Shown piece by piece: positions 1 through 53,561 of a DNA stretch of 64,000 nucleotides. The notes under the pieces were generated by a model. The model saw only the letters and a list, made by a program, of their open reading frames with translations, made no database searches and had not been told where the DNA came from. This DNA is from Gnetum montanum (Eukaryota > Plantae > Gnetophyta). Positions within the stretch are counted from its first letter, which is position 1. Every line of letters starts with the position of its first letter. The stretch covers positions 780,828 through 844,827 of the forward strand of contig MNCI01001817.1 in the NCBI GenBank assembly GCA_015680685.1, written 5' to 3'. Both the position numbers and the translations under genes were made by a program.

Positions 1-934
1 TCTGATTTGTAGATCCAAGAGTAATAATAATAATTCTATCATTACTTCTATTTCTTCAACTATTCTATCTCTCCATACTTCATAGAAAGAGTGGCCTCAA
101 TACGCCCTGATATGATAGTAACTTCATCAGAAGAGACGGCCACTATGAAAAAAAACATAGAGTGAAAGGTTAAAAACATAGTACACGATGATGCAACAAA
201 GAGAAAATGGAGTCTAAGAATGTGATCATTTACTGTCAGTAAATGGGGTAGGTAGATCAGGAGCAGGATCAACCCCTTGAGGAAGAATTGGCCCATTGGA
301 GGACCAATCCTCATGCAGCCAACCATGAACTTGACAGCGTTCAAAAGCCCTTGAGAATTTCCTAGTGTAGTCCATGATAGTAGTTTTTGTATGGTCCAGT
401 ACNNNNNNNNNNNNNNNNNNNNNNNNNNNNNNNNNNNNNNNNNNNNNNNNNNNNNNNNNNNNNNNNNNNNNNNNNNNNNNNNNNNNNNNNNNNNNNNNNN
501 NNNNNNNNNNNNNNNNNNNNNNNNNNNNNNNNNNNNNNNNNNNNNNNNNNNNNNNNNNNNNNNNNNNNNNNNNNNNNNNNNNNNNNNNNNNNNNNNNNNN
601 NNNNNNNNNNNNNNNNNNNNNNNNNNNNNNNNNNNNNNNNNNNNNNNNNNNNNNNNNNNNNNNNNNNNNNNNNNNNNNNNNNNNNNNNNNNNNNNNNNNN
701 NNNNNNNNNNNNNNNNNNNNNNNNNNNNNNNNNNNNNNNNNNNNNNNNNNNNNNNNNNNNNNNNNNNNNNNNNNNNNNNNNNNNNNNNNNNNNNNNNNNN
801 NNNNNNNNNNNNNNNNNNNNNNNNNNNNNNNNNNNNNNNNNNNNNNNNNNNNNNNNNNNNNNNNNNNNNNNNNNNNNNNNNNNNNNNNNNNNNNNNNNNN
901 NNNNNNNNNNNNNNNNNNNNNNNNNNNNNNNNNN

Positions 935-1289
935 TAACGATTAGCGTTTGGTAAGCCACAGTTGCATAGTTCAGGGTGTGTCCGGTAAGTGGGAACGGAT
1001 GCTGACGCTAGTTAATTTAGACTTAGGACATTAGTTAGAGTTAGCTTAGTTTCTCACCCTTTCCTCCGATAGCATAGAAGATAAAACGAAAAATACCAAA
1101 AAAATCACATACCTCAGACTTGCTTAACCATACACCGTGACACATACAAGCAAGCCTGGGAAGACAACGAACAATTAACCCCAAGTGTTTGAAGTGGTGT
1201 TAAGGCATTTAGTCTACGGAGTTTGACCGGATCGCGCGTGCACGCTCGTATTCGTATGGTTGAGTGTAGGGGTACCTCGCCACTCATCA
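935..1289 (+). mobile_element. 3' part of an Athila-family LTR inserted in cargo exon 2 of the partial Tat copy
   Basis: Reverse complement of the LTR ends at 33626 and 42564 (...CGTATGGTTGAGTGTAGGGGTACCTCGCCACTCATCA). Ends in CA at 1289; its 5' part is lost in the N gap 403-934. Confidence 0.85.
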
Positions 1290-2067
1290 ACAACATTCAA
1301 AAGCCCTTGAGAATTTCCTAGTGTAGTCCATGATAGTAGTTTTTGTATGGTCCAGTACCGTAGCACGAAGAGTGGGGTCCACCATGAATGCCTCCAATGT
1401 TGTGCACGTTAAGGAAAGCCCACCATCATCATCATGCATCCCCTGATCATTGAAACGAGGCCTACATAGAAAAAAGAATATTTATGCATAGACAAATGAC
1501 ATAATTTTAAAAGAATCAAAAATTATAGCAAAGCACATACCTATCCACTCTATACACTGTTCCAGGTGGGTTTTGGAACAACGTGTGAGCACGAAAAGCT
1601 AGAAAAAGTATGTTGCTGCTGTTATAATGACTACAAGTAGGCAATTCCCATACATGAGTCAAGGGACAAGTAGACCTAGGACCCTTAGGAGGGCCTCTCT
1701 CAACTATGAAAAGTCCCTCGTCTATGTCAACAATAAAGGCAAGCATGTCTAGTGTAGATCCCGGCAACATTGTTTCAACGATATCATGGGCCAACTGCTC
1801 ACTTAAGTGAGATCATATAACCATGATGAAACTTTGTAGGATAAATAAAAAAATGCACCAACCCTAGGACATAACCATATCACATGAGGCCCAATACGCA
1901 TATCATAGGGAGGTACGTCTAGTCCAAAAGGGCCAAACCAAGCAAGTACAACAACGAGCTCGACCACAAGGAGGGAAGGTTTAAGCCCCCTACATATAGC
2001 CAAAACCTTAGGTAAGTAAAAAGGGTCCAAGTGTTTAGAATAATATGCAATTACATAAACCAAATAC
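1290..2067 (-). pseudogene. Copy 1 of cargo exons 1-2 (NIF/FCP1-like domain)
   Basis: ORFs 1803..2063 and 1516..1794 match ORF 12532..13086 with one frameshift. Intron 1462-1540 has an AG|GTATGT donor and a TGTAG| acceptor. Confidence 0.8.
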
Positions 2068-3817
2068 CTAAATAATATTTAACACATAGATCCTCCCCAT
2101 GAGACAAGGACACCAATATTTATTTGATGTATTTAATGCTCACTGGGGCACATTGAAATCTTTTACACCGTAGTTTATTGCAAGCGATATAAAATAAACT
2201 CACAAATATAGTAACATAAACATTCATAGATTCGTAGAAACATACTTAAATCCATCCAAACAAGGAAACAATAAATAGTGTAGATATAAACACCAACAAT
2301 TAATAAACATTTCAACAAACAATGTTCATCTTCACAATTTTACGCAAGCCAGACATGCTCACATTACCAGCAATCGCTGTATATACACAAATTGCAAACC
2401 TCTCATTCTTGCATGAAATTTAGTGCAAATATACCAAGCTTTGAAAAATAAAACTCGCTGAAAACCAATCATTGTTTTCTCTTTAGCCTCCAAACACTGG
2501 TTCACCTTGCAGCAGACACTAAACTTAGCAAGAAAACCATGGCCTATATACAGGCCAATCGAGGAAAAACTATTGAAAAAAAAATAAAAAAAGAAACCCC
2601 AAAAAAGGGAAATGCTGCCCATGGGAAGCCCGTCCCAGGGCTAAGGACACCCACGTTACTCATGCTGCGAGTGCCTAGCACTAACACTAGGCTTGTTCTT
2701 GGCACTCAGGCTAGGCCTATTCTCGGCACGCACATTGCATGTTCCTAGGAACTCATGCTGGGGTTTCCCCTGGCACTCACACTAGAGCCTACCTAGGAAC
2801 TCACACTACCCATTCCCTGCAACTCACGCTCAGGTTTCTCCTGGCACTCACGTTGGAGCTTTCCCTATTTACAAAATGTAAACTGGCCCATATCCAATCA
2901 CGTACAACCAAAAGAAAAAGAAAAATGAAAACATAACAACCAAAAATACAACAAGCCATAAACCCCAGTATAAGCCCTGATGTCCCAAAACATAGTAGAG
3001 AAACCCAAAATCGTGCTGAGAAAATAGTAGAAAACAGTGGCCATGAGAGACCAAGTTGCCCAAACTAATGCTATGAACAAANNNNNNNNNNNNNNNNNNN
3101 NNNNNNNNNNNNNNNNNNNNNNNNNNNNNNNNNNNNNNNNNNNNNNNNNNNNNNNNNNNNNNNNNNNNNNNNNNNNNNNNNNNNNNNNNNNNNNNNNNNN
3201 NNNNNNNNNNNNNNNNNNNNNNNNNNNNNNNNNNNNNNNNNNNNNNNNNNNNNNNNNNNNNNNNNNNNNNNNNNNNNNNNNNNNNNNNNNNNNNNNNNNN
3301 NNNNNNNNNNNNNNNNNNNNNNNNNNNNNNNNNNNNNNNNNNNNNNNNNNNNNNNNNNNNNNNNNNNNNNNNTTCATGTTATTATTTACATCATCTTTGT
3401 TTCATTCTTACATGGTATTCTTCTTTATTTCATTCTCTGGAGATAAGGCTGAAATATTAAAAATAGCAAAAACAAAAAAAAAGAGGGGAGCAAAGTTAAA
3501 ATCAAAATAGAAATATATAAAAACATATGATGACGTGCTTAAAAATTCATAAGACTATAAAATTTCATAAATTTATTATTCGTGCAAAGCATAATGATAA
3601 GAATATTACCAGCATGATATGGCCTAAAACTACCATGGATGGCCCGGTATGGCCTAAAACTACTATATGGTCCAGGTATGACACTAAACTACTGCTACGT
3701 TCCGCAATTTTGTCAGTACATAGATTAGTTACCCAATACTCGTTTACATTTGACAACTCCTTCATCAAGTAAAATTCACTCACTTCGCTCCCAGTTTAAA
3801 TTAGTAGGAGTAAGCAC

Positions 3818-5073
3818 ATGGCCACCAAAAATATGTTTTCAACATTGTCTCTCAGTGGACCACATGGGGAAGTAAAAAGGATAATCAATCTAAAATCCTT
3901 GGATCTAGACCCATTCACTTATACTAATTTAATAACCTCCACTCAAGAAACGTTGGATTGGTCTAAAAATGTGGCTAAGACTTTAGATCTAGAGGCTGAT
4001 AACATCACTGAAGATCCTCTTGTTGAAGTCCCCATTACTACATCCAATGATGAGACTAGAACATTGAAATTAAGTATCCTACTTGACTCACAACTTGTTA
4101 GTGACATCACTCGAGTATTAAAAGACAATATAAAAACATTTTCATGGTCATATATTGACATGCCAAGGTTGGACCCTCGAATTGTCCAACATAATATTAT
4201 TCTTGATGCAAAAATCAAACTGGTAAAGCAAAAGACACAAAAGGTTAGACCCAAGGTGGCATTAGTAGTCCGTGATGAAATCACGAAGCTCTACCAAGCT
4301 AGTTTCATCTAAGCCATTGACTCTTCTGACTAGGTATCAAACATTGTCATAGTCCCTAAGAAGAATGGTAGTATACGCATGTGCATTAACTTCTGTGATC
4401 TTAACACAGCAACTATAAAGGATGACTTCCCACTACCTAGTATCGATCAACTTGTTGACACAACTGCTGGGCATGCACTATTATTCTTTTTAGATGGATT
4501 TTTAGGATACAATCAAATAAGAATCAACCTAGAACATCAACTCAGGACAACCTTTATGACACATTGGGACACATTTTTCTATACGATGATGTCGTTTGGT
4601 CTTAAAAATGTAGGTGCTACATATCAACAAGAAATAACATATATATTTAGTGATTACATGCTCAATTTGCTCAATGATTATGTTGATGATATCACAGTTA
4701 AATCTAAAACCGAAAAACATGCAAAAAATTTAGACTTAGTGCTTAAACATTGTCTCAAATATGACCTTAGACTCAATCCAAAGAAGTGTATCTTTGGTGT
4801 CAAAATGGGCAAAATGCTTGGCTTCATAGTCTTTCAAACAGGGATACGAGTAGACCCTGATAAGGTTAAGGCAATAATTAACATGCAACCACCAAAAAAC
4901 CTTATCAAACTATGTGGTCTACAAGGTAGACTACAATTCATTAAACACTTTATTGCAAAGCTGATGGATAAATTGAGACCCATGCAACACTTTCTATGAA
5001 AGAATGTGCATTTTCAATGGACTCAACAGTTCCAGGAAGCATTCGAGAACATAAAGCAAGAGTTGGCTCAACT
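3818..5073 (+). pseudogene. pol: Ty3/Gypsy reverse transcriptase, truncated (copy 1)
   Basis: KDDFPLPSIDQLVD, LDGFLGYNQI, FGLKNVGATYQ, YVDD, LNPKKCIFG motifs, with in-frame stops. Confidence 0.93.
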
Positions 5074-5074
5074 T

Positions 5075-8000
5075 AGGGCAAGGACCCTACTTACGCAATC
5101 CTCACACCAAAATAATATAACTTCATTTGTGTGAAGATTCAAATCAACCTACTTATCGATCGCATAGAAAGAGAAGCAAAGAAAAACTATGAGCTCATTT
5201 ACAAGGGAGTTTGTGAGTTCACTCCCCCAGCATTTGATATAATCCCCCTTTTTGAGCCCCATCACAGACTCATATCTTAGCTTCTCATGGCAAGGAGTCA
5301 AGCCTTACAGCCACCTCCGATAGAGCCTCAGAGTGGAGATGAGGAAGATGACTTTGCAACCCAATCTAAGCATGGGGATTCATACCATACTATTAGTCCT
5401 CATGCCCATCTATTCCAACCTTTCTTGGAAGAAACTATACTTCCTTCTTCATTCGCAAATACTTGAGCATCGGTTTCTCTACAGGAAGTACCCACTTCCA
5501 TTCCCACCTTCTCCATGCCCAACATTCAATCTGATACATCCATCTCCATCATACCCTTGCAAGTACAGTCCCAAAAACCCCCTCCTCAAAACTAATGTAG
5601 GAACCATCTTCTGACCTCAAGTAATTGGGATGCCATCAGTTATACCAGCTTCCATGTCCGTCCACTACATATCGCAAGTACAAACCCATGGAGCACCTCT
5701 GATTACTTCAGCCCAACATGTTCAAGGTGTCACCTCACAACCTGTGGCTGGGCAGTGGGTTTCACCAACTATTCAGCAATACCAACCTACTTACTACAAC
5801 TTATCACACCCTGCAATCCCATATTTGAATGTTGCTCCACCACAATGACTGACAATCCAATAGTCTCCCCTTCCACAAACAATGCAACAATCAAACTACT
5901 ACCAATCGCAATCTACTCAACCAACTAGTTTGCCTACTACCCAAGAGTGGGTAGACACAAAGAAAATGATGCACTCGTTAATTGAGGAGGTAAAGCACCT
6001 TAAAAATGTAAACATTGAGGAATTCAAAGTGCTGGACTTCTACCAAGATGACCCAATCAACCCTTCAGTTCCACCATTAAACTTACCAAAGAGAATCTCA
6101 TTACCTCAACTAACCAAAAATAATGGAGAGGGAGATCCAAACACCCATCTAGTGATATTTTGACTGGAATGTCTATTGCTTCAGGCTTGGCCTCATGTAA
6201 TTCTACATGTATTTGCTATGTTCCTGACAGGAAAAGCCTTAAACTGGTACCGAGCTTTACCTCGTAACTCCATATCCTCTCTAGAGGATTTGTTACATTA
6301 GTTCGTTACCTATTTTAAATATAATTTAAAGCCTAAAGCCACACTAGATAGCCTAATTCAAATTAAATAGGCACCATTAGAGCCAGTACAAAAATTTATC
6401 CAAAGGTGGAGTGCAGCCCTGAATGAACTTCATGAGCCCATCCCTGAAACATACTTGCTCACCATCCTTAAGGCTACCATGAATGACTTTATTAAATCAA
6501 AAATTTATTATTTGAGTGCCCGTACTTTGAGTCAAGCATTCATGCAAATTAAGAACATAGAAGAAGCGGAGCAAGCAAGTAACAACCTAGCTTACTCAGC
6601 CTTTGGGATCCAACATACAAGGAAGGATAAGGATAAATCCAAAACAATGGTAGTGATGGTGGTGGAGACAACCCAACCTAACAATCTAGGACAAAAAGGA
6701 AAACAACCCATTTCTACAACTAGCCGTGAAAGAATCACACCTACACCTACACCCAAATCTTCCTCAAATAAAAACACCAACATGGGTCACACTCATACAT
6801 TCAAACAAAAGGATCCCACTCAATATACACCCTTGCCTATGAAGCCTTCACAATTGTTAGATCAACTTCTAAGGGCCGGGTTAATCAAACACAAACAAAT
6901 GCGCCCCCCCCCCCCCCCCCCCCCCCCCCCCCCNNNNNNNNNNNNNNNNNNNNNNNNNNNNNNNNNNNNNNNNNNNNNNNNNNNNNNNNNNNAGGCTTTA
7001 GGTTGGATAGGTTTTGTGAATATCGCCAATGGTGTGGGCACAGAACTGACTGTTGCTTTACTTTAAAACAAGATATACAACGCATGATTGACAAGGGTGA
7101 AATAGTATTTGACAAGGCAAACCCAGTAAAGCCCCAAAACCAGCCCATGGGAGTCTATAAGGATCCTCTCAATACTAAAGACTCACAATATGTGATTAAC
7201 ACTATTCATGTGGAAAATGGGCAAGACACCCCTCAAAAACCTTTTGTAATCCGCAAGCCTTTTGAAACTACACCTACCTCAACACCTCCCCAAATTCCTT
7301 TTGTCATATGCACATTCCCTGCACCACAAAAACCATTCATCATTCCCATACCTCCTTCTATCATAGCAGCAACCACACCATTAGAAACCTGACCCACTCC
7401 TTTTGTGATCTGGGTACCAAAACATCCTAACATGGAACCCCCTATAGTTCCTCTATGAACCTTGCGAGAGTGCCTTGCTGACAGGCTCACAAGAGAGCTT
7501 CTAGAAAAGGAACATCATGAGCATAAATTGGGACCATCGAAGCCCATACCGCTAAATGTTGTTCCTATGGTTCTATCCACCAGTGAGCCTAGCACAAGCC
7601 ATCAAGAGAAGGATACCAGCACTCCCAGTGTCCCAAACTCAACATCCCTAGTTACTAACACAAGAATCCCTCCACAAGAAATACGAATGCTGGGTCAAAT
7701 GGACCAAGTCTCCACAAGAAAGAGCATCCCAAGTGGTAAGGATCTAGCAAGTGCATTAACCCAAGTCACGTAGGCTTTGAAACAAAAGAATACTTCCTTA
7801 AGCCTGTATGATCTAGTAATGACCTCACTGGTACATTGGGAAGCTCTCATGTGCATGTTGACTTTGATTCCTATTAGCGAGGACCTTCTCATAGATGAGC
7901 CATCCATTTATGCAATACTGTCCCCACAACCTCAAGAATTAAGGCCCACATCCCTAGAGTTTCATGCTAATGATATTAAGCGAGATGACAAAACAAGGGA

Positions 8001-8689
8001 GGTCACTACAGCCCCTATGTTTATAACAATATAAGTCAACCACTTCAAAATACATAGGATGCATGTTGATGACGGTGTAGCAACAAGCGTAATACCCTTT
8101 CCTGTCATCGAAAAACTAGGTCTTACAGAGCAAATATGGACCACAACAAATTCCTTTTTAAAATCCTTCAGTGGTTCCTGTGTCGTGGTAAAAGGCATGA
8201 TTACCTTAGATTTCATAGCAGGGGACTAGTTCCCCACATCGGCTGAATTCGTAGTGGTTGATAAAATGCTGGTTCAATCTGATTCTAGGATGAACTTGGT
8301 TAGCTCAACTTAGAGTCGTATCCTCACCAATCCATCAAGAAATCCATCTACCCTATGAGGGTGGTGAAGTCATCATACACGGGAACACAACAGCATCACT
8401 CACTTCCTTACACTCGGGAATGGATCAAGGGTCAGAGGTTGAGTTCTCTGAGCCTAAACAAGAAACCATGAACGCACTTCAAGACATGAGCCAACCATTA
8501 ACCCATGATACTACTAGAACTAAGGAAGCACTAGACATCACAGACATAGGAGCCATTCCCACTAACATCTCTTGGTCAGAGCTACCTTTTGATATCTCCA
8601 GTGAAGGGGAAGGTGAGTATAAGATTGTACCTACCTGCCCCACCCCTCATGTCAAACTACAAAAAATAAAAAAGCAACTCAATGACTAG
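5075..8689 (+). pseudogene. gag: gag-protease ORF (decayed)
   Basis: Retrotransposon gag core (LPQLTKNNGEGDPNTHL...LTGKALNWYRAL) ~6090-6330. Tat-type knuckle FCEYRQWCGHRTDCC ~7012-7056. Protease RMHVDDGVATSVIP ~8056-8097 and FNLILG ~8273-8290. Confidence 0.85.
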
Positions 8690-9546
8690 GGTGAACTATC
8701 AAGCGTCCAGAATGATGTTAAACTACTAACCGTCCGATTTGACATTAAAACTGCCGACGAATGTTCAAAATGATGTTAAACTAGCCACAGTTAGAAATGG
8801 CTGGTTCCTTTTAAAGCTTCCTAAAACTGTTATTGCTTTCGGGCCACTATGACCTAAAACTAGTAATCCCTCTTTCTCTTTTTCAACACTGATGCAATGG
8901 TCCACCATGACTCTAAACTAATGTGCACAGCCCGAAATGGCTTTCAACTAGAGCTTAGTATGTTGAAAGTTTACAAACTCTCATTACATTATGCCAAATT
9001 TTCATTTACATGTCACAAGTTGCAATTTCAATTATGCATTTTTTACAAATATTTTCCTTATGTTTTGTTTTACATCTTGAAATCTCATTTTACATTCAAC
9101 TACACGCATATGTTCATAATATACCTGAGAAAATAAGAAAAATAACAAAAAATATAAATATATATAAATATAATATGGAATGTCAACATGGAAATAGAAT
9201 GCCAACACATTATGACACGATTAAATACATATCATACACTCCCATTAAACATCAAAAATCCAAAACATTTGGTAGCCAAAGCTAGACTAATAGTTAGCTC
9301 ACACATTAGTACTAGGAGGGCGCTAGCCCCCAAAATCTTCCACATCATTTGCTCACACTCCACTAGGGCCAGCCTCATCATTACTATGTCCCTACAACAG
9401 AAAAAAAATAAAAAATAAAAAAATAGGTAAGCATAACAAAACATTACATGAATAGAAAACCTGAATGAACAATAACACTAACACTAAAAACAAATAAAAT
9501 AATACAAAAGTAAGCACCATAATAAAATACTCACAGGTGAAGAGGG

Positions 9547-12500
9547 CTATAGACTAGCCTCCAAGCATTGCAAAATCTCCTCCTTGGGTACGTTGGCCCA
9601 ATCCTCTTCTAGACCAAGATCAATACCGGCCAAAGTTTTACCCTTGTCCACCAAGGCCCAAGTAGGGCACTCAAGAGAGAACATGCCTATCAAAGCCTCC
9701 CTAAAGGTGGTGGTAATGGTTCTCTCAGGAGATTCCTCCACTTCAGTGCACTTAGAAAACCTATCATAAGCAGGACGCAAGCCTAGTCCATTAATGAACA
9801 TTTCCTTCTAGCGATGTTCAACTGATTCCTCTTTTAACCACTTCTTGTATTGGTTTCTTTTGATCTTAACCCCACTTACGTACCTTAGCAAAAAAATATT
9901 TTCAATCATGACATTTTCTATTTAGTAAATCCATTTGTGCCCTTTATTTAGCTAAATCCCATGTTGCCTGAACTTTGTTGTTTAAAATTGTCCAGTAACA
10001 TGCATGGGTGATCTCAGATGTGCACCAAGTACTATCACTAGATAGCCTAGCAGCAGCAAAATCATATCGAGACTGAAGATCCCTCTTATCTTCTCTCTCC
10101 TTCGCTAATGTTTCCTTCAATTAGTGCACCTCATTCCATAGGTACTCAATTGAATGCCTACAAGTCTAGAGGGACTTAGCATTTTGTACAACGTAGCTAA
10201 AAACTACATCATAAATCTTCCTAGGGACTTGTTCAACATTTTCTAGCAATTCAGGAAGAGCATCAATATGAGTAGCCTCAAAAGGATCCTATTGAACCTT
10301 GGCACCTACAAATATAAGTACCACAGCTATAATTAACAATGAATGCAAATAGACACAATAAGCCCAGACACTTAGCATGATACGTAACATACACATACCT
10401 AGTTCTGGATGAGCTTGTTGTAGGCAAGTGACCACATCATTAGCAATTCCCATGACAAAGTCCATTTTATTAGGCATTTCATGCCATGGCCTTAACCAGT
10501 CAGCAAATGTTGGACAAACATGGAATGTCACTTCAATCAGGGCCTGTGACCCTGACACCTTTGCCTAGGATGTATGCACCTCAGAGACCTCAGCATCCAC
10601 CTCTGATGCTAGGAATAATCAAGATAATCAATACCAACATATAAAGGTTAAAGGGTGAAAATGTGGATCAAGCTAAAGGAACATACCAAAAAGCCCTTTG
10701 CTAGTCAGCTTGGGCAGATCACCAAGTTGCAAGGACCCATCGAAAAAGCCCCTCTCATTGCTTGAATGCTTAAGTGCATCCAAGGCCTCAGCAAGTTTCA
10801 TCTCCATGATGCTTGCTACATCTTCCTCTTGCGAGACAGGGAGTTCCTCGATCGCTTCTTCCCTATCTTTCTCCCCTTCCTCTAGCCCTGTGACAACCAC
10901 TTCAGGTTCAACCATTGGGGCTAAGGCTTCTCTTTCCCTCTCAGAGCTTTCCTTTGATAACACCAGTACTCTAGTGTTAGTATGACATAGTATATACATT
11001 TGATAAACATATAAACTAAAAGTAATAATAAATAAAAATAATATGTATAATAAAAAAATAAAAAAATTACCCTCCAGTAGCAATACAAAGCGGATCCTCT
11101 TCGCTCTTGGCGGTCTCACCTCTGGAGCAGGCTCCCTTGGACATTCAACTCTCTTCACCTTCACCTTAGATTTCCCAATAGTCTCAAAAATCAAACATTC
11201 AGCTCCTCTAAGAGATGTGTGCAGTCTAGGTGGCTCCAATCCCAAGCTATCACAGGATTGATGGGACCAACTAGCTGCACCCTCAATGGTAACAAACACT
11301 AACTCTTCATTGCCTTTAGGTGGGTCTTAATATTTGGTAGTGTTAAACAAATGGCAAACCCATGGGCGAGATTACTATGAATGATCCCTCAATATATAAT
11401 GGTTGTCCCCATAAACCTCTAAAAACTCGACAAACCTACATAGATAAGCCATGAAGAAGGAGAATGTGAAATGGGACTTGGCATTAATGTTTGAGTGTAA
11501 TCTAACAATCTCTCCATGAAAGCTAGGCCCAAGAAATTGTGCCCAATTATAATGCATGTCCATCTCTAGGATTGCACATATGATATGCATAGACTCAATC
11601 CCTAGGTTTCTTCCTTGAGAAAAAGATTTAGGAAATGCCCATGTCCGAAAGATGGGATACAACAAATTCACCTCCATTGATCGAGTATCACCTTGCATGG
11701 AAAAACCTCTAGGACCCTGAGACACTCCTAACCAATCTTCAAGCTCCTTTATGACTTGGCTTTCCTTGGTTGCTTTATCTACTACCACCTTGGCACCATC
11801 CATAGGTATGCCAAAAATATTGGAAAGGAACTCAGCAATCAGGTGGAAATACACCTTGACTCCTCAAACCTGCATAGTAAAACAAGAAGCATCATCACTA
11901 AAGGAATCAACAATAGTAACCATTTCAGTCACTGGAACATTAGGAGTCAGAGCAATGAACAAGTCCATCAAACCTGCACGGGTAAGATGGTTGATGACTA
12001 ACTCAAAGGCCTTCGTCTGCAACCATTGTTGCGACTATTCTGTCTCTCCATACTTCATAAAAAGAGTGGCCTCAATAAGCCCTAATATATTATTAGTATC
12101 ATCAAAAGAGACGGCTGCTGTAAAAAAACATAGAGTGAAAGGTTAAAAACATAGTACACGATGATGCAACAAAGAGAAAATGGAGTCTAAGAACATGATC
12201 ATTTACCATCAGTAAATGGGGTAGGCAGATCAAGAGTAGGATCAACCCCCTGAGGAAGAATTGGCCCATTGGGGGACCAATCCTCATGCAGCCAACCATG
12301 AACTTGACAATGTTCAAAAGCCCTTGAGAATTTCCTAGTGTAGTCCACGATAGCAGTTTTTGTATGGTCCAGTACCACAACACAAAGAATGGGGCCAGCC
12401 ATGAATGCCTCCAATGTTGTGCGCATTAAGGCAAGCCCACCATCATCATCACACATCCCCTGATCATCGAAATGAGGTCTTCATAGAAAAAAGATATTTA

Positions 12501-13084
12501 TGCATAGAAAAATGAAATAATTTTAAAAGAATCAGAAATTAAGGCAAAGCACATACCTGTCCACTCTATACACTGTTCCAGGTGGGTTTTGGAATAATGT
12601 GTGAGCATGAAAAGCTAAAAAAAGTGTGTTGTTGCTGTTATAATGACTACAAGTAGGCAATTCCCATACATGAGTCAAGGGACGAGTAGACCTAGGACCC
12701 TTAGGAGGGCCTCCCTCAACTATGAAAAGTCTCTCATCTATGTCAGCAATGAAGGCAAGCATGTATCGTGTAGATCCCAGTAACATTGTTTCAATGATAT
12801 GATGAGCCAACTGCTCACTTAAGTGAGACCATATAACCACGTTGAAACTTTTTAGGATAAATGACAAAAATGCACCAACCCCAGGACGGAACCATATCAC
12901 ATGAGGCCCAATACGCATATCATAGGGAGGTACGTCTAGTCCAAAAGGGCCAAACCAAGCAAGTACACCAACGAGCTCGACCACAAGGAGGGAAGGTTTA
13001 AGCCCCCTACATATAGCCAAAACCTTAGGTAAGTAAAAAGGGTCCAAGTGTTCAGAATAATATCCAATTACATAAACCAAATAC
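9547..13084 (-). pseudogene. Antisense six-exon cargo gene (~1000 aa): NIF/FCP1-like pseudo-phosphatase + PMD-like region + acidic linker + coiled coil
   Basis: Exons ~13084-12557, 12478-12207, 12117-11071, ~10968-10687, 10608-10399, 10305-9547. GT..AG introns 12556-12479, 12206-12118, 11070-~10969 (acceptor uncertain), 10686-10609, 10398-10306; phases rejoin the ORF-track fragments. Stops are mostly TAG/TAA/TGA consistent with C>T decay; one frameshift in the last exon. Confidence 0.8.
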
Positions 13085-13678
13085 ATAAATAATATTTAAC
13101 ACATAGATCTGCCCCATGATACAAGGACACCAATATTTATTTGGTATATTTAACGCTCAGTGGGGTACATTGAAATATTTTACACCATAGTTTATTGCAA
13201 GCGATATAAAAGAAACTCGCAAATATAGGACCATGAACATTCATAGATTCGTAGAAACATACTTAAATCAGTCCAAACAAGGAAACAATAAACACTGTAG
13301 ACATAAACACCAGCAACGAATAAACATTTCAACAAACAATGTTCATCTTCACAATTCTACGCAAGCTAGACATGCTCACATTACCAGCAATCACTGTATA
13401 TACACAAATTTCGGCCCTCTCATTTTTGCATGAAATGCAGTTCAGATATACCAAGCTTTGAAAAATAAAACTTGCTGAAAACCAATCACTATTTTCTCTT
13501 TAGCCCCTAGACACTGGTTCACCTCGTAATAGACACTGAAATTAGCAAAAACTAGAATCACCATGGCCTATATACAGGCCAATCAAGGAAAAACTGTTGA
13601 AAACAAAAGGAAAAAAAAGAAATCCCAACAAAGGACCGCCCATGGGAAGCCTATCCCAGGGCTAAGGACACCCACATT

Positions 13679-13880
13679 ACTCACGCTGCACATGCCTAGC
13701 ACTCATGCTGGGCCTATTCCTAGCACTCACGTTGGGCTTGTTCTTGGCACACATGCTGCCTATTCCCAGGAACTCATGCTGGGTTTTCCCCTGGCACTCA
13801 TGCTGGAGCCTACCCAGGAACTCATGTTACCCATTCCCTGCAACTCATGCTGGGGTTTTCCCTAGCACTCACGCTAGAGC
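13679..13880. repeat. Degenerate ~21-24 bp tandem array with ACTCAYGCTRG core (copy at ~2655-2860)
   Basis: About 8 cores, e.g. actcacgctgc, actcatgctgg (several times), actcacgctag. Lies upstream of the antisense gene. Confidence 0.75.
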
Positions 13881-14988
13881 TTACCCTATTTACAAAATGT
13901 AAACTAGCCCATATCTAATCGCGCACAACTAGAAGAAAAAGAAAAATAAAAAACAACCAAAAATACAGCAAGCCATAAACCCTAGTACAAGCCCTGATGT
14001 CCCAAAATGCAGCAGAGAAACCCAAAATCGCACTGAGAAAATAGCAGAAAACGGCGTCCATGAGAGACCATGCTGTCCAAACTAACATTGCGCACATAAT
14101 ACTAGACAAGGAAGCAAGAGGAAGCAAACATAAGTGAAGTTCCATCCCATGTTGGAATTCTAGCCTTAGGGAGATGCTGAAGTAGCTCTTCACTCTTCTC
14201 CATGAATGCTAGATTCGCTTGCTTCTTCCCTTTGCCTTGACTTGGTCTCCCTTTTCCCTTCATTGCTGATCTGTGACACAAGCTACAACTCACACTGTAA
14301 TGCACGATGCAACTCATGCTGTAATGCACACTGTAACTCACACCAACGCTCATGCTGCACTCTCTAGCTTGCTCACACTCTCACATCCACAAACTCACGC
14401 TAGCACAAACGACACCCCTTTACCTCAAAGCCCTCTTTTTAACTCCCATGTTCACTTTCATTTTTCTTATTCATTTTATTGTTTTCATTTATTCATTTTT
14501 ATTTATTTTTAGTAATTTATCAGGTTCCAAGGTTAACTTTTACTTTCATGTTATTATTTACATCATCTTTGTTTCATTCTTACATGGCATTCTTCTTTAT
14601 TTCATTCTCTAGAGATAAGGTCAAAATATTAAAAATAGCAAAAACAAAAAAAAGAGGGGAGGAAAGTTAAAATCAAAACAGAAATATATAAAAATATATG
14701 ATGATGTGCTTAAAAAATCATAAGACTATAAAATTTCATAAATTTATTATTCGTGCAAAGCATAATGACATGAATATTACCAACCCGGTACAGCCTAAAA
14801 CTGCCATGGATGGCCCGGTATGGCCTAAAACTACTATATGGTCCAAGTATGACACTAAACTACCACTACATTCCACAATTTCTTCAGTACATAGATTAAT
14901 TACCCAATACTCGTTTACATTTGACAACTCCTTCATCAAGTAAAAGTCACTCACTTCGCTCCCGGTTTAAATTGGCAGGAGCAAGCAC

Positions 14989-17900
14989 ATGGCCACCAAG
15001 AATATGTTTTCAACATTGTCTCTCAGTGGACCACACAGGGAATTAAAAAGGATAATCAATCTAAAATCCTTAGATCTAGACCTGTTTGCTTATACTAATT
15101 TAATAGCCTCCACTCAAGAAACGTCAGATTGGTCTAAAAATGTGGCTAAGACTTTAGATCTAGAGGCCGATAACATCACTAAAGATCCTCTTGTTGAAGT
15201 CCCCATTACTACATCCAATGATGAGTCTAGAACATTGAAATTAAGTGTCCTACTCAACTCATAACTTGTCAGTGACATCACTTGAGTATTAAAAGACAAT
15301 ATAAAAACATTCGCGTGGTCATATACTAACATTCCAGGGTTGGACCCTCAAATTTTCCAACATAATATTATTCTTGATGCAAAAATCAAATAGATAAAGC
15401 AAAAGGCACAAAAGGTTAGACACGAGGTGGCATTAGTAGTTCGTCATGAAATCACGAAGCTCTACCAAGCTGTTTTCATCCGAGTCATTGACTATTCTGA
15501 CTGGGTATCAAACATTATCAAAGTCCCTAAGAAGAATGGTAGTATATGCATGTGCATTGACTTCTATGATCTGAACACAACCACTATAAAGGATGACTTC
15601 CTGCTACCTAGTATCAATCAACTTGTTGACACAACTGCTGGGCATGCACTATTATCCTTTATGGATGGATTTTCAGGATACAATCAAATAAGAATCAACC
15701 TAGAACATCAACTCAAGACAACCTTTATGACACCTTGGGTCACATTTTGCTATACGATTATGCCATTTGGTCTTAAAAATGCAGGCGCTACATATCAAAG
15801 AGCAATAACATATATATTTAGTGATTACACGCTCCATTTTCTCAATGATTATGTTGACAATATTGTAATTAAATCTAACACAACCGAACAACATGCAGAA
15901 GATTTAGACTTAGTGCTTAAACGTTGTCTCAAATATGACCTCAGACTCAATCCAAAGAAGTATGTCTTTGGTGTTAAAATGGGAAAAATTCTTGGCTTCG
16001 TAGTCTCTAAAACAGGGATACGAGTAGACCCTGATAAGGTTAAGGAAATAATTAACATGCAACCACCAAAAAACCTTACTAGACTACGTGGTCTACAAGG
16101 TAGACTGCAATTCATTAGACACTTTATTGCAAAGTTGACGGATAAGTTGAGACCCATGCAACACTTACTATGAAGGAATGTGCATTTCCAATGGACTCAA
16201 CAATGCTAAGAAGCATTCGAGAACATAAAGCAAGAGTTGGCTCAACTGTTGACAGTTTATCCCCCATAGAGCGATAAATCCTTCTACATCTACCTTGCAA
16301 CCTCTGATTCTTCCATTGCATCGATGCTTTTTCAGAAATGTGAAGATGAAATCGAGATCCCTATCTATTACTTAAGCCATGCTCTAATTACTTATGAACA
16401 ATGATACAATGACATGGAGAGATCATGCCTTGCCCTCGTCTTCTCCTTGAGGAAATGGCGACATTATCTCTTCCGTAATCAAGTCTACATCATTTGCAAA
16501 AATAATGTGCTTTGAGCCATCACTAACAGCATCTATGAGTTGAGTAGGATAGCTATATGGAAAGCAATGATCACGGAGTTTGACCTACACTATGTTGCTT
16601 AGTCCTCCATAAAAGGTCAAGCAATTGTCACATAATTGACCATCTCACCAACACATGATCAAACAACAATTAACCCTAAATTCCCCAATGAGAATGTTAA
16701 TTGTATAGGCACCGTACCTGATAACTACAAGGCAATCCTTTATTTTGATGGAGCTTCAACTTCCCGAGGAGGAAGTGCTGCGGCCATTTTAACATACCCC
16801 TCCAGAGAAATCTGGCACTTCAACTACCAATTAACCTTTCCTTGTACCAATAATGTGGTGGAATACGAAGGTATTCTTAGAGGTCTTCTGGCAGCATTGA
16901 CTTTAAAAATTGCACGTCTTGTAGTTCGAGGTGATTCACAACTAGTCATTAACCAAGTCACAAAGGTTTACACATGTAAGGCTTTCCATTTGCAACCATA
17001 TTGTGATTTGACCAAATATCTACTAAAGCAATTAATAGACGTGGATGTACAACATGTTCCTAGGAGCGAAAACACCGTTGCCGATGCACTTGCTACACTA
17101 GCCCTAAACATGACACCTGAAATGTTCCATGCATTGCCTAGTTCTATAACAAATTATGTCGAACCTATAACCGATGCTCTCAATGAAATGCCCTTAGCAT
17201 CCGTTAGCACAACACATGTGATAGAATGGTATGATGACATAAAAGAGTACCTTCTACAAGGCGAACCTCCATAACATTTGACAAACGCTCAAAAGGACAC
17301 AGTGCAAAAACATTCTCAAAAATATGCATTAATAGGGGACACATTATGTAGCAAGTCCTATGAAGGCATTCTGTTGATGTGCATTAGTAGCATCAATGGT
17401 CAAAGAATTGTAGAACAAGTCCACGAAGGACTTTGTGGAGGGCACATAGCACCCAAAGTGATGGCAACAAAGATTAGACATTTGGGTTACTACTAGCCAC
17501 ACATGAAGTACGATTTCTTCTCCAAGGTTAAGACATGTGACATTTTCCAAAGGCATGGTAACCTAATACATGTGCCACCTAACAAATTGCACACAAAAAA
17601 AATCACATGGTCATCCCAAATATGGGGATTAGACATCATTGGACCAATAACACCACCTTCTTCTACAAGGCATAGCTTCATTATCACTACAACTGAATAC
17701 TTCACAAAATGGGTGGAAGCTATTCCCCTTAGGAAGACCACTTCTAAGCATGTTTGCACTTTCATACTAGAAAACATCGTGACCCATTTTGACATTCCAA
17801 TGATCATCGTTACCAACAATGGGCCTCAATTCAGCAGTGCAGATACTAAAAGCTTCTGTGAAAGCCTAGGTATTAAACATGCCTTCTCATCACCTTATTA

Positions 17901-18465
17901 CCCGCAGAGCAATGGTCAAGCAGAGGCTACAAAAAAAACTATCATCATGGTGCTTAAAAAGATGCTAAATCAGATCAAGAGGCGATGGCATGAACAATTA
18001 TTCTATGCATTGTGGGCATGCAGAATAACACATCGAACACCTACAGGTAAAACTCCATATAGTCTTGTATATAGATCTGAAGTTGTTTTACCTTTGGAGT
18101 TACAGGTTCCCTCATTGTAGATAGCTCTCTAAGGCCTCCTAGATGAAATCCAAAGCAATGAATTGTGCATTGCTGACCTTAACTCGGTGGAAGAGGAATG
18201 TGTGTGAATGCTTGATTAGATCGAGTGGTACCAGAAACAACAATAGCAACGACATCGACACAATCTACATAAGTTCCCAATTAAAGAAGGAGACCTAGTC
18301 CTCAAGGCTGTCCATGAACACCCAGATAAATTCTCAGCTAACTAGGAAGGACCTTACTTAGTCACCAAGGTGTACAATAATGGAGCATTCAAACTTGCTG
18401 ACATGGATGGAAATGAGTTCGCTAATCCCACAAATCACCTGTACCTGAAACGGTACTATGTCTGA
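14989..18465 (+). pseudogene. pol: pol: RT (~15427-16110), RNase H (~16250-16630), additional archaeal-type RNase H (~16730-17110), integrase (~17390-18465)
   Basis: MDGFSGYNQI / PFGLKNAGATYQ / YVDN; LYFDGAS...TNNVVEYEG...GDSQLVINQV; HEGLCGGH, WGLDIIGPI, YYPQSNGQAE, WEGPY; stop TGA at 18463-18465. Confidence 0.95.
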
Positions 18466-19620: not shown

Positions 19621-19633
19621 AAAGAGGGGCCAA
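19621..19633 (+). other. Polypurine tract of the Tat element
   Basis: AAAGAGGGGCCAA immediately before TGAAACACC. Confidence 0.75.
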
Positions 19634-21337
19634 TGAAACACCACTAATTTTGGCCTACCACTATGAAATAAGAACAACTCAGAGCCTTTTGAGCTTTTAA
19701 GAAGCAAAAATTTGACTAAGGCATAGAACTCACGCTAGGCTTGTCAAGCTAGGCTTACCCCTAGCATGAGCAACTACAATGACTTCAAAATTAAGTCAAA
19801 AATGGTTCAATCTGAGGGTGCAAGTCATCTGCATAATGTCATTGTTGTCCACTTCAAGTTTTAGCATTTAGGAGTTTAGATTTTAGGCTAGATTATACAA
19901 ATTTTCTTAGTCATGCTATAGTCACGCTCAGCTCACACTAGCAGCATGAGTCCAGCGTGAGCAACTCCAAGGGCCTCAAAATCATAGTTTGACTTCAAAG
20001 GTGCAAGTCATCCTCAGGGTTTTTTGATGACTACTTCAAGACCTAGTCACTTGAATTCTAAATTTCAGGTCCAAAATTACAAATTTTTTGTAGCTCACGC
20101 TATGGTCACATTGAGCTCACGCTCACAACATGAGTCTAGCATGAGCTACCAAAAGTGGTTCCAATCAAGGTAAATCCAATCTTAGTTTTTAACTTGTAGA
20201 TCACTCTCAGGGTTAGACACAGTCAGGCAAATGTTGCACTCAAGGAGTAGGCTTCAAAGATCAAATTTTGGAGTGAAATGTATCATTTTCAGCTCACTCA
20301 TACCCAGGTCATGTTGAGGTCACACTGAGCTCACGCTAGCAGCGTGAGTAGAGCATCTGTACTGATCACACCCAATCAAAAGCATGCCAAACACGTGTTG
20401 AGGACATGCCAACATAAAATAAACTCACGCTGGAGGCTTTGGTGAAATAGAGATGCCTCAAATAGCCACAAAACCACTCACATCAGCATCCTGCAGCAGT
20501 CAATTCAGGGATCGAGAAGTTCAAAGCGAGCCAGAGTCAATTTCTCTTGTTATACATTATCATTTTATGGTAAATTTTCATCATTTGTGAGCTCTTCAAG
20601 CTCTTACGCTCCAAATTGTATCTTCTTCTATGGGTGTAAGCTAGCTTGCATAAGTCAACACACGTTGTAAGATACAGTGCATCCAGTCAAGAACGTAGCC
20701 TACCTACACACGTCCAATTCACATGCAGCTGTCCATCAAACACCTATCACACGATCCATTTTCCTCTCATTTCTCAGCCATTGATTCCATCCATGAATTT
20801 CACACCTGAGCCTACCCAAACCTTATAAATACCCCGTCCATTCACATAAACGGGGTTGGTAATTTTGAAGGTTGATGGCTTTGGGAGCATTGACTGGCAA
20901 CTTTGGACGCTTGGGCACATGTGACTCTTAGCATCCAAGCACCTGAAACACATCACTCTAGGGCTTAGTGCTTGACTTGCCATCTACACCCGCAACTACA
21001 CTTTGACCGATGCACATCCTTGTTAAGCAATCTAATATAGTTCATTATTGCCTTCCTTTATACATTATTTTCTTTGTTTTGATTTATTTTACACTTATGT
21101 ATATGTGTTGTTTACATTTCATACGTTACCAGTTACAATAACCCCAACGCAAGCCATAGCTTACGCTCGGGGAAGTCCTTGGTTAATTTGTGTGCAGACC
21201 ATCCAAGGCACTCTTCCCTCATTTCTTTCTTTTCCAACTTGCCCTCATGCAAAGGTAGGGTCAGCTGTGACTCTCTGGCAATCTTTCAGCATTTGTTTTT
21301 CCCTTCCAGCCTTACGCCGACGATTTCGGTCAGCACA
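19634..21337 (+). mobile_element. 3' LTR of the Tat element (~1.7 kb)
   Basis: Starts TG after the PPT. Internal degenerate ~180-200 bp repeats, TATA-like CCTTATAAATA at ~20821. Ends ...GGTCAGCACA before a compositional shift; the end is not confirmed by a second LTR. Confidence 0.65.
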
Positions 21338-33625: not shown

Positions 33626-34405
33626 TAATGAGTGGCAAGGTACCCCTACACTCAACCATACGAATATGAACATTTCACACATGATCCAGTTAAACTCCAA
33701 GGAGTAAGTGCTTACACACCTTAATGGAACACTCAGAGTTAATTAATCGTTGTCTTCCCAAACTTACTTGTATTGTCACAATTGTATGGTTAAGTAAGCT
33801 TGAGGCATATGGTTTTTATAACTTTTATCTTTTTGGTGTCTTATGCTAATAAGGGAAAGGGAAAGAGAACTAAGTGACTAACTTACCTTAACTATTCATT
33901 AACTACTTTCTAATTGTCCTAACACCAGTATCTGTTCCTACTTGTCATACACATCTTGAACCAGTGCAACATTGCTAGGATTACCAAACACTAATTGTTA
34001 CTGGGTTACCAAGCGCTACATGCATGCTCAAAGTGGTCGTACTAAGTGCACTTAACTATGAGGATCAAGGGTTGAGAGAGATATTAATTAACTAGGAAAG
34101 CATTAAACATTCAACAATAATTAATTACTTATTAGCTTAGTCCGTATGCTGCAAGGTTTATCATAAATTTCATCTTTATTGACGTACACAAATGTGTGCT
34201 CAGGTACAATTTTCTCGAATAAAGATCCATTCACTCTATGACTCCTACTGCAGGCACACAGAAATTATTCTAACTCTGGAATGGTAAAACTACAAGAGTT
34301 TGGCTAAGGGTCTAAGTCTAACTATCGGGAACAAAGGTCACCGCCTCTTATTTATAGAAGATGGGGCAGGATGCGATATCGCATACACGATATTGCAACT
34401 CATCA
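33626..34405 (-). repeat. Athila 3' LTR
   Basis: Direct repeat of 42564-43339; terminal TG has decayed to TA on the + strand. Confidence 0.93.
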
Positions 34406-36329
34406 TACCCGCATGACTGAATGAAAACTCTTCCTCAAGTTTCTCACAAAATATTGGGAAGGTATGGGATTATTGACTTGAATGACACTAGTGGTAAATG
34501 GGGTGACATGTGAACGGATCAACATTACAATACATGGCAACATTAGTGTTCATGACCACAAGAGTGAACACTATGTACATTTAACATCTAGCCTTATTTG
34601 GCAACTAAGAGAGAAGAGAGAAGAGAAATAGTCTATTGCAATCAATGCCAAGATTGCACTTTCCGTTGGCCATCCATAAGTGTGCCATCAATCTCATTCC
34701 TTGCATGAATTTTCCAGCACCAGTCCATCCTAAGTGTTTCATCCAGATCTAGTCCATTGTTGTATGATTTCCATCTACACACACAATACAGTCTCATATT
34801 AGCAAGGATAAATAAATCACAATGCAGTTGATACCTTTCCTTGATATAATGTCCATTGGCTGAGTTGTGATATGGCTAATATGGATTCTGGAGATATAAC
34901 ACTGGTGACTACCCAAGGTGTAGGGGTTAGGAGAAAATTGAAAAAATTGGACCAGGACCCCCGTGACTAAGAGCAATCCTCTGGTAGTGATAGAATGGAA
35001 AAAGATAAAGAATAAGAAAGATGGAGAAAAAGAAACAACAACAACGCCGATAAAATGGATGTCAAAGGTGGGAATGAACAAAACAAATGTTGATTACAGA
35101 AATGTTTAAGGGAAAGAAGTTAACTGATGCACCAAATAGGAATGCTAGTGGGTACTCCCCAAAGCAGGCTCATGCCTTTTATGCTCTGACAAACCCACAT
35201 TCAAAGAGTCCGTAGGCTCTAGAAATGTTGTTTGGAAGCAAGAGTTAAAGTCTTAACCACAAGAATTTACCAAAAATAAAATAAAGCATCAACCAAAATA
35301 TAGACTGCCGATATAACTAGCAATGAGGTGGAGAATGGAGAAAAAATTATGGAAAGAAGAGAATGGAATGGAGTCCCAAGAACAAGGTGGTGTACAGCCC
35401 CTAGTGTATTTATGGTTAATGTGACTTAGTAGATCTCATTCCAAATCCAGCCTCAAACAATCCACATCCAGTGACTTCACATTAATACACTTGGCCAATC
35501 CATCCACTTGAAGTAACATGAATGCTTCTACCAAAGAGTCACCACCATTCCGAGAAAACAAGAAAGGGAAAAGTAGGAAGCGAGGAAGCGAGGAAGGGCC
35601 TTAGTTAGAGGAAACATGTTTGTTTAGTTCCATAACCAATTCTTGTAGCCCAGATGATTATTTTATCTAAGGGGTGTGCTTTGAATTCTCACTTCTTATT
35701 TTTTTACGTGAGAACCACACCATGCAAAGACTTATTATTTTTATTAGCTCAGCTTCCCGATAATGGAGGAATGACAGAATGGTAAGGAAAACTCAAGAAG
35801 AAAACATCCAAGCGCCCAAGAGAATGGCTAGCATAAATGCATCAAATCCCCTTGAAGTCACACCCTTTTCAATCCTTCAGTCCTTCCTCAGTTTGAGAAA
35901 TACCCAGCCACCAATTCGTTAATAGTTTCATTGTTAAGAAAGGGATCGTACAATTCCAAGCCAAGAGAGAAGATAGAAATTTATGAATGCATGGATGACA
36001 TGGAATCATTGCCTATTATATCACAAGAACCATACCTTAGTATCAACATTATAACTCCAAGGTAAAAATCAAAAATTAGCAATCAATACAATATAGTTCA
36101 TACCACCATCAGGAGCACTTATTAGGTGACGAACCTAACAAAACAAACAAACACACAAAGAAATGAAAGAGTATAAACGATGTTGTAAAATAAAAACAAG
36201 AAAAGTTAAAGATATTTTTAAAACAAAAATGTGTAAAAAAAAACTTAAAAATGAATTGAGGGCCTTAATTGATCAGCAGATGTGGTCATCTCCCCCATGA
36301 CTGAGTTAGGAGGAGGAGATCTAAAATAA

Positions 36330-41601: not shown

Positions 41602-42544
41602 ACTCTCCCTTCTTTTATGCCTTGATTCCTTAGAGTGCCCTCGTCCTCGTTCTCGACTATCTCATCGATGTTTTTCACTCTATTTTCCTTTATCCTCATG
41701 ATTAGGTTCCTTATGACTACGTCTAGACACTTAAGGAAGAAGGAGAACCATCACCATGGCAATTTTTTCTACCTTCCCTTCGGTGGTCCCAGCCCCGATC
41801 ATGATCATGATCATGATCAGAACATCCATCTTTATCGTGTTTTTGTGTTCCTTCGTTGAACACTTCATGTTCATGGATATCAGAACCAGGGTTGTGAACC
41901 ATGGAGTGGAGGTTCTGATACACCACCTCCTAACCATCGTTAGGAGGGGGAACATCATTTTGTGGGGAACCTGTTGAAGTTGATTTACTACCCTCAATTT
42001 CGCTCAAGACATGCAGAGCGTTATGGGACCCTTTACCCTTCAAGGATGTATGGTATCTCTCATGTCACAAGTCTCTTTGACGTTGCACTTCTGTGGAATG
42101 GTAGTCCCTTGTGTCATGATCGCATGCAACGTATTCCGCATATAAAAGTAGCACATTTATTCATGTAAGAGCATGAAGAAGCATGTTGGGGACTGATCGG
42201 TCTAGAGTCAACACTATGTTACCCTCCAAGTCTCTCCAATGCAGTTGTTCATCTTGGTGGAGGATAAAGGTGAAATCAAGTACATACTCATCATGATGAG
42301 TATATACCACCCAAAACTATTGAGGAACTGGCGGATCTTGGTCACGTGTATTATGCTGTCGACTATCTCTTGTGTTAGTCCTAGGCAGTGAAATGCTCTT
42401 ATGCGAACAAGAAGAAATTTTTGTCTTATTCAATGTGTGATGTACCGTTGTCTTATCTTTCTTTGATTAACCCTAAGGGTTCGTTCTAGCATTCCAATGA
42501 TATGGATGATTTCCTATGTTCTACGTAGCGTACAAACAACTAAG

Positions 42545-42562
42545 TCCCCAACAACGACACCA
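42545..42562 (-). other. Primer-binding site (Athila type, tRNA-Asp)
   Basis: Minus strand TGGTGTCGTTGTTGGGGA, a C>T-decayed form of TGGCGCCGTTGCCGGGGA, adjacent to the 5' LTR. Confidence 0.85.
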
Positions 42563-42563
42563 A

Positions 42564-45770: not shown

Positions 45771-45773
<3 letters not shown>

Positions 45774-45811
<38 letters not shown>

Positions 45812-45833
45812 NGAGAGAGAGAGAGAGAGAGAG
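45774..45833. repeat. (GA)n microsatellite
   Basis: About 30 GA units with one N. Confidence 0.95.
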
Positions 45834-53541: not shown

Positions 53542-53561
53542 TTTCTATACTACAGAATCAC

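Follow-up and report, generated by a model that had tools for sequence, protein, structure and literature searches.

Within a 64,000-nucleotide (nt) stretch of the Gnetum montanum genome (contig MNCI01001817.1, positions 780,828 to 844,827; hereafter the window) lie two copies of a retrotransposon that looks like a Tat/Ogre-type Ty3/gypsy element and carries an extra gene, the cargo, antisense to its gag and pol. The new analysis indicates that the first exon of this gene encodes a NIF/FCP1-type HAD domain whose catalytic positions have been substituted, so that it very probably lacks phosphatase activity, and that this dead form was kept by purifying selection while the family amplified. The domain probably serves as a non-catalytic binding module.

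The domain lies in a minus-strand frame at 12532-13095 that runs for 187 codons without a stop and contains all the motifs that an earlier note on this DNA had quoted when it proposed an FCP1/NIF-family HAD fold; by sequence, we identify this frame as a NIF/FCP1-type HAD domain. The exon is placed as follows, with the domain itself at about 12557-13008 and an uncertain 5' end, for which the candidate ATG at 13086 is a putative start only:

12557..13086, minus strand: cargo exon 1, NIF/FCP1-type HAD pseudo-phosphatase domain (Pfam, phmmer, alignment, model, Foldseek, VIA)

The Pfam profile check that the earlier note had suggested gave a match of exon 1 to NIF (PF03031) at E 0.0014, yet its 18.8 bits fall under the curated cut-off of 21.8 bits. 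Significant homology comes from phmmer, which returned 44 matches at E<=0.001 (best 1.3e-9) from 1.84 billion proteins. NIF is found above the Pfam cut-off in 42 of these 44, the remaining two being repeat proteins, and the top clusters include named members from Sphagnum, a red alga and Bidens. By sequence, the best match in the PDB is UBLCP1 (E 0.0012), and a hidden Markov model (HMM) built from the homologues only, which had themselves been picked by the query, gives the cargo domain 69-78 bits. The phmmer protein set holds no close relative, identity being at most 38%. A word-indexed protein search with exon 1, which reaches near lengths only, gave no match at E<=0.01 among 102 candidates, and none of 78 pattern matches in metagenome contigs was confirmed. 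The earlier note had spread the domain over exons 1 and 2; only the exon 1 part of that placement is supported, as exon 2 has no profile match and adds no score over shuffled versions of itself (25 of 200 shuffles were equally good). Reading exon 2 as the last helix of the NIF domain looked possible by eye and was rejected as unshown. As such, the sequence evidence for the domain is that of exon 1.

The predicted structure points to the same family. An AlphaFold2 model guided by the alignment, which is therefore partly circular, reached a predicted local distance difference test score (pLDDT) of 86.5 and a predicted template modelling score (pTM) of 0.83. The Foldseek comparison of this model, a check proposed in the earlier note, agrees with the NIF identification: the matches listed at E<=0.001 are all of the FCP/SCP family, namely CTDNEP1, UBLCP1, Scp1-3, Tim50 and Fcp1. 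In VIA, 130 residues aligned to small CTD (C-terminal domain) phosphatase 3 with Z 15.4 and a root-mean-square deviation (rmsd) of 2.4, and other HADs scored about 11. These modelled likenesses to Scp1 speak to the fold and not to the ligand.

The catalytic positions were compared by aligning residues 30-179 with 38 of the 42 NIF matches, four long two-domain proteins being excluded:

12976..12978, minus strand: motif I nucleophile position, Glu for Asp (alignment column; same codon in both copies)
12970..12972, minus strand: motif I acid/base position, Val (alignment; both copies compared)
12826..12831, minus strand: motif II Trp-Ser, kept (alignment; the Trp is a stop in the other window copy)
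12682..12684, minus strand: motif III position, Arg for Lys (alignment; Cys in the other copy, a CpG-type change)
12610..12615, minus strand: motif IV, Ala-Phe for Asp-Asp (alignment, family contigs, both copies)

Among the 38 relatives, the column of the motif I Glu holds Asp in 34, a gap in three and Glu in one, and that of the Val holds Asn in 31 and Asp in two. Lys occupies motif III in all 38 (Arg in this copy, Cys in the second), and motif IV has Asp in all 38 at the Ala and in 36 at the Phe. Motif I of the cargo thus reads E-L-V-G-V and departs from D-x-D-x-(T/V), and the Ser/Thr that active FCP/SCP phosphatases carry at motif II is present. Both replacements named in the earlier note, Glu for the motif I Asp and Ala-Phe for the motif IV pair, are thereby confirmed. 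In HAD chemistry, the first Asp is the nucleophile and, together with motif IV, holds Mg. Because precisely these residues are replaced, we predict with high confidence that the domain neither binds Mg nor forms a phospho-aspartate intermediate, and that it has no phosphatase activity.

The substitutions are old. The codons GAG, GCT and TTT, for the motif I Glu and the motif IV Ala-Phe, are identical in both window copies (in the second at 1959-1961 and 1594-1599, respectively), and decay of methylated cytosines fails to explain them because transversions are needed to reach them from Asp codons. The changes therefore predate the split of the copies, as had been proposed. Moreover, the domain matches NIF proteins by sequence and, in the alignment-guided model, the HAD/NIF fold, and the family was not found to retain a consensus with D-x-D-x-(T/V) and Asp-Asp; either opposite outcome would have spoken against a pseudo-enzyme.

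The wider family provides the evidence for retention. Parts of the cargo are present in nine DNA runs from five organism labels, and four runs, one per organism, were aligned to 12590-13000 at >=80% identity, where they yielded 1,549, 1,780, 1,415 and 1,410 family contigs. The summed contig depth is in the thousands, which is not a copy number but fits a high-copy repeat, and within exon 1 it is highest in the motif I region. Places differing in at least 20% numbered 73, of which 40 were listed, the per-run tallies covering the remaining 33. By this measure, the motif IV Asp-Asp stays below 20% in the family contigs of all four organisms. Specifically, the first Asp needs G>T, of which every run has zero places, and the second needs both A>C and A>T, of which A>T is absent in three runs and a hidden A>C is lacking in the fourth; depth at motif IV is low (204-507), at the edge of the aligned region. 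At motif I, no run has a C>G place, and one run is also free of a hidden C>A.

Of the family variants listed, 21 of 40 are synonymous, whereas identical changes in matched methylation contexts would be expected to give 10.3 (P 1e-4); outside CG/CHG sites the proportion is 17 of 25, with 6.5 expected (P 5e-6). Wrong-frame controls give no excess (12 versus 13.2 and 9 versus 14.2 expected), and variants in RNA lean in the synonymous direction as well (9 of 19 versus 5.0; 6 of 10 versus 3.1). This predominance of synonymous changes shows that purifying selection acted on the already dead domain while the family was amplifying. Its catalytic motifs are substituted while selection keeps the domain, the pattern of a predicted pseudophosphatase, and the part of the earlier proposal that spoke of a retained non-catalytic domain is supported, at the level of sequence, by the family-wide variants and their synonymous excess.

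The relatives also indicate where such a domain may have come from. Motif I is of the D-x-N type in 31 of the 38 relatives versus D-x-D-x-(T/V) in two, and the nearest host family by sequence is a D-x-N subfamily of NIF and not Fcp1, Scp1 or CPL. These best relatives (PF03031, E to 1e-9) are uncharacterised moss, flowering plant and red alga proteins that have in common with the cargo the landmarks Arg-Pro, Trp-Ser, Trp, Thr and Asn-Pro. The first Asp, the Lys and the Asp-Asp are intact in them, whereas the cargo, which resides in a retrotransposon, has lost all three. Part of PMC5070719 gives D-x-D-x-(T/V) as the defining motif of CTD phosphatases, and a section of PMC13216928 classes a fungal NIF group with D-x-N-x-T, as well as Tim50, as HAD pseudophosphatases; the fungal group and the plant and algal matches are likened here by motif. 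Scp1/CTDSP, Fcp1, CTDNEP1 and UBLCP1 resemble the predicted cargo fold (Z 11-15) but require D-x-D-x-(T/V), share 12-21% identity with the cargo and act on the CTD or the proteasome. Tim50, which aligns to the cargo model with Z 12.7 and rmsd 2.5 over 123 residues, is likewise a NIF-fold pseudophosphatase that serves protein binding, according to the same part of PMC13216928, but it is a host subunit of mitochondrial import with 13% identity to the cargo and no sign that the cargo descends from it. Of the captured CTD-phosphatase-like domain that the earlier note envisaged, the host-type NIF/HAD origin thus stands, and the CTD-phosphatase-like donor gives way to D-x-N relatives. The phylogeny by which that note hoped to find the donor did not place it: in a tree of 49 domains, whose careful search is unfinished, the cargo sits on a long branch (3.31) with 42% support. 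Separately, P0047, an unrelated NIF protein on a long branch of its own, likewise carries Glu in the nucleophile position of motif I and represents a second, independent degenerate form.

Beyond the domain, the cargo gene consists of six minus-strand segments, about 1,000 codons in total, separated by five GT-AG introns (72-102 nt) across which the reading frame stays in phase:

12479..12556, minus strand: intron 1, 78 nt, GT-AG (ends predicted; spliced out in poly(A) reads of related copies)
12207..12478, minus strand: exon 2, 90 codons, no stop, no family match (frame, Pfam)
11071..12117, minus strand: exon 3, 348 codons, five stops, no family match (frame, Pfam, protein search)
10687..10968, minus strand: exon 4, acidic (25% Asp+Glu), no stop (frame, composition)
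10399..10608, minus strand: exon 5, one stop (frame; joint near the donor in two RNA reads)
9549..10305, minus strand: last exon or exons, charged, several stops, frame change near 9900 (poly(A) read cover to about 9360)

The acceptor of the last exon is at 10305 or 10326. The predicted product begins with the dead HAD domain; a long middle part and an acidic stretch follow, and its end is charged. A word-indexed search with exon 3, again at near lengths only, returned no match at E<=0.01 among 845 candidates, and neither PMD (PF10536) nor Transposase_28 (PF04195) was matched by Pfam in exons 2-4 and part of exon 6 of this decayed copy. Upstream of the cargo, a 53-codon frame at 14100-14263 (minus strand) has a Lys/Arg-rich start; about 14141-14202 is the sole part of it that fits 320-375 poly(A) reads per run, at a depth far above that of the other exons, and these reads are unlike it at both ends. 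The frame is possibly a first exon, or else a distant abundant transcript is related to it.

The sequence index listed no RNA run with the cargo; four RNA runs, chosen for sharing the species label of the best DNA run, were aligned to 8600-15400, two of them poly(A) runs from one study. The poly(A) runs cover the cargo exons, with almost no reads at 13140-13820 or below 9280, and six and seven reads, respectively, skip the predicted intron 1. Poly(A) transcripts of cargo relatives thus exist from which this intron has been removed. One run contains at least two expressed variants, as indicated by split counts, and in one run 15 reads match up to the Glu codon and then diverge. One RNA run favours one direction over the cargo; its library orientation is not given, and the strand signal was not used.

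The surrounding element, whose lineage is assigned from its domain order, is laid out as follows:

5900..6900, plus strand: gag, broken (Pfam Retrotrans_gag E 1.8e-6)
7990..8300, plus strand: protease-like stretch, broken (recognised by eye; no Pfam match)
15394..16173, plus strand: reverse transcriptase (RT) (Pfam RVT_1 E 1.9e-21)
16636..17274, plus strand: second RNase H, in the aRH position between RT-RNase H (RH) and integrase (Pfam RVT_3 E 1.1e-18, RNase_H E 7.4e-7)
17497..18120, plus strand: integrase (INT) core (Pfam rve E 3.7e-15)
19621..21337, plus strand: polypurine tract (19621-19629) and probable 3' long terminal repeat (LTR) (sequence; ends inferred)
13680..14400, plus strand: short motif CTCAYRCT in arrays that precede the cargo gene on its upstream side (motif density)
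59..5073, no strand assigned: second, partial copy with cargo exons (minus), spacer and the start of RT (plus), 89-92% identical

The gap between the protease-like stretch (PR) and RT is about 6 kb and holds the cargo on the minus strand. In our reading of the sequence, the cargo therefore lies antisense between gag-PR and RT-RH-aRH-INT of a Tat/Ogre-type element; the second RNase H sits between RT-RH and integrase as in the Tat clade, and part of PMC6317226 describes the order RH-aRH-INT as a mark of Ogre and Retand elements. The nearest database proteins to the RT are at most about 59% identical. The PR, RT and integrase blocks are tied to one element because a family of short repeats, at 3618-3693, 8746-8913, 14796-14855 and 18577, occurs past PR, before RT and past integrase. 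The probable 3' LTR runs from TG at 19634 to CA at about 21337, and self-comparison found no partner within the window, where the 5' LTR and primer-binding site are missing. The CTCAYRCT motif, picked after inspection, reaches 11 per kb upstream of the cargo and 6.4 in the LTR versus 0.12 in 21341-64000.

Several further observations concern the element and its neighbourhood. A strong donor-like site at 8612 (plus strand) lies past PR, and an AG at 14978 (plus strand), kept in both copies, precedes the RT frame. In Ogre, gag-PR is split from pol by an intron, as described in part of PMC4408406, and from the sequence these two sites could delimit a comparable, Ogre-like intron, about 6.4 kb long, over the whole cargo; in this copy, which is decayed, their phases do not agree, and an ATG near 14989 belongs to the RT frame itself. 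At 5073/5074, the partial copy ends where RH begins and, with no LTR between, continues straight into sequence upstream of the gag of the fuller copy, a junction that by its sequence appears to be a recombination between copies or an assembly join. A separate LTR element at 33628-43339 has 778-nt repeats that are 91% identical and an RT (minus strand) at 38467-38880, and a fragment related to it (72-74%) is found at 935-1289, where it adjoins a gap in the partial copy. At 44427-55128, an old pair of repeats of about 1.7 kb, 72% identical, surrounds a 1-kb tandem duplication (47306-49332) and AT-rich, strand-skewed sequence with no recognised open reading frames (ORFs). Weak Pfam matches in other ORFs of the window (E 0.01-0.2) were regarded as chance.

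Antisense cargo is not new to these elements. ORFs encoding PMD and coiled-coil proteins lie antisense in Ogre/Tat elements (part of PMC4408406), and the extra ORFs of Tat, Ogre and Retand elements (PMD, Transposase_28, coiled coil) share with the present case an antisense extra gene and RH-aRH-INT and, going by the protease-like stretch recognised by eye in one copy, perhaps also a PR set apart from RT. The layout of the cargo product is also broadly like that of PMD/Transposase_28 and coiled-coil extra ORFs (portions of PMC4408406 and PMC11963269). Tat extra ORFs are, however, reported before gag or after pol in the relevant sections of PMC6317226, PMC4408406 and PMC7264820, whereas this cargo lies between PR and RT; it further differs in having at least five introns, a HAD domain in first place and no PMD or Transposase_28 match in exons 2-4 and part of exon 6. 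In Arabidopsis, PMD proteins pair or fuse with phosphatase domains (part of PMC7156037). Capture of a host enzyme domain that then becomes fixed in a transposon family has precedents in orchid AlkB elements and in VANC carrying Ulp1: an Ogre-like orchid Ty3/gypsy element captured AlkB (section of PMC9289625), and VANC proteins, some of which contain a Ulp1 domain that was captured, exert their action at short motifs in the elements that encode them (passages of PMC13317346). The orchid AlkB kept its catalytic residues and is active, whereas the cargo domain is predicted to be dead. NIF is missing from the extra domains named in that section of PMC9289625 and from the domain table of PMC6317226, and the literature searched, which left most subscription papers beyond its reach, held no report of a NIF-type retrotransposon cargo. 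Accordingly, host-domain capture by Tat/Ogre elements and NIF pseudophosphatases are already known, and a dead NIF domain as antisense cargo appears to be new.

Judging by analogy, the domain was probably acquired from the D-x-N NIF subfamily and joined to an extra ORF of the Tat/Ogre type. The antisense orientation relative to gag-pol would let the introns survive reverse transcription of the sense RNA and would keep expression of the cargo separate from that of gag-pol. On the same grounds, the product of about 1,000 residues may act in trans in the nucleus, where the dead domain would recruit or block a host partner and the later exons would tie the product to the element, perhaps at the motif arrays common to the LTR and the region upstream of the cargo. 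We therefore consider it somewhat better than an even guess that the first domain of this spliced antisense accessory gene is a non-catalytic binding module, probably aiding expression of the element. The motif arrays in these two places recall the action of VANC at short motifs of its own elements, and a bolder form of the proposal, to which we assign a rather low probability, is that a Tat-type lineage built a counter-silencing or trans-activating protein from a captured pseudo-enzyme fold, with its gene antisense in the PR-RT gap, acting on the lineage's own LTR motif arrays.

A number of points weigh against these interpretations. The cargo domain is only 20-30% identical to its relatives, its pLDDT falls to 42.9 when it is folded as a single sequence, hence the partial circularity of the guided model, and motif I lies outside the aligned core in one HMM search and inside it in another. 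Exons 2-6 have no family match (Pfam for exons 2-4 and part of 6; protein search for exon 3). Both window copies are broken, the second copy's version of exon 1 having one stop and a 1-base gap, and the order gag-PR, cargo, pol is whole in one copy only. Variants below 20% and copies below 80% identity escape detection, so that minor or distant subfamilies are missed, and three runs have one unlisted C>A place that could be in the Glu codon; C>A differences between the window copies themselves occur at 12865 and 12968. The window copies differ neutrally from each other (8 of 29 synonymous versus 7.7 expected), as is expected of decay after insertion. Finally, most RNA reads (636 of 687 and 608 of 647) match the window at less than 90% identity and hence come from relatives, which could include a domesticated gene.

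Among the alternatives, the one that survives best, although we consider it unlikely, is that the domain is a structural passenger kept for folding or splicing of the fusion while exons 2-6 do the work. Purifying selection demonstrates constraint and not a binding role, the tree branch is very long (3.31), and Tat extra ORFs elsewhere function without such a domain (parts of PMC4408406 and PMC6317226); against this, 150 residues with kept Trp, Arg-Pro and Asn-Pro and conservative Asp-to-Glu and Lys-to-Arg changes suggest a maintained surface. A little less probable is the function favoured in the earlier note, in which the dead active site traps the phosphorylated Pol II CTD or a phospho-protein and shields it from host phosphatases. 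The best structural matches are Scp1-type CTD phosphatases, the motif II Ser is retained, and the Arg that replaces Lys could still hold phosphate. However, the structural ranking mirrors which NIF proteins are solved, the nearest sequence family is D-x-N and not the CTD phosphatases, and loss of the Mg- and phosphate-holding residues would argue against trapping of phospho-peptides at the old active site. A Pol II CTD binder or decoy thus finds no direct support, and the data do not point to the Pol II CTD in particular.

More doubtful again is the notion that expression and selection concern a domesticated or host gene, the element copies being decaying passengers, as the divergent reads and the two broken window copies would allow; the synonymous excess resides in high-frequency genomic variants of a high-copy family across four organisms, which argues for selection during amplification, and one run has at least two expressed variants. 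Lastly, an active enzyme with altered chemistry, using Glu as its nucleophile on another substrate, has a partial parallel in human TIMM50, for which part of PMC13216928 reports activity under acidic conditions despite the lack of a canonical motif, but is very improbable given that substitutions affect four acidic or amide positions as well as the Lys, and that both motif IV carboxylates are now non-polar.

The binding-module reading bears on the open question of where the antisense extra genes of plant Ty3/gypsy elements come from and what they do; most of these genes have no recognisable host source according to part of PMC7264820. Here, one such gene starts with a recognisable host enzyme fold that became fixed in its dead form and was maintained by selection; in this high-copy family, common to at least four organisms, the gene is also expressed and spliced. 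The domain thereby offers a defined, foldable bait of 150 residues, whose partners would name the host pathway engaged by the element. If the counter-silencing or trans-activating proposal were true, the cargo would be an LTR-element counterpart of VANC and would give a handle on binding by the uncharacterised D-x-N NIF proteins of plants. The cargo may also point to the role of this little-studied subfamily.

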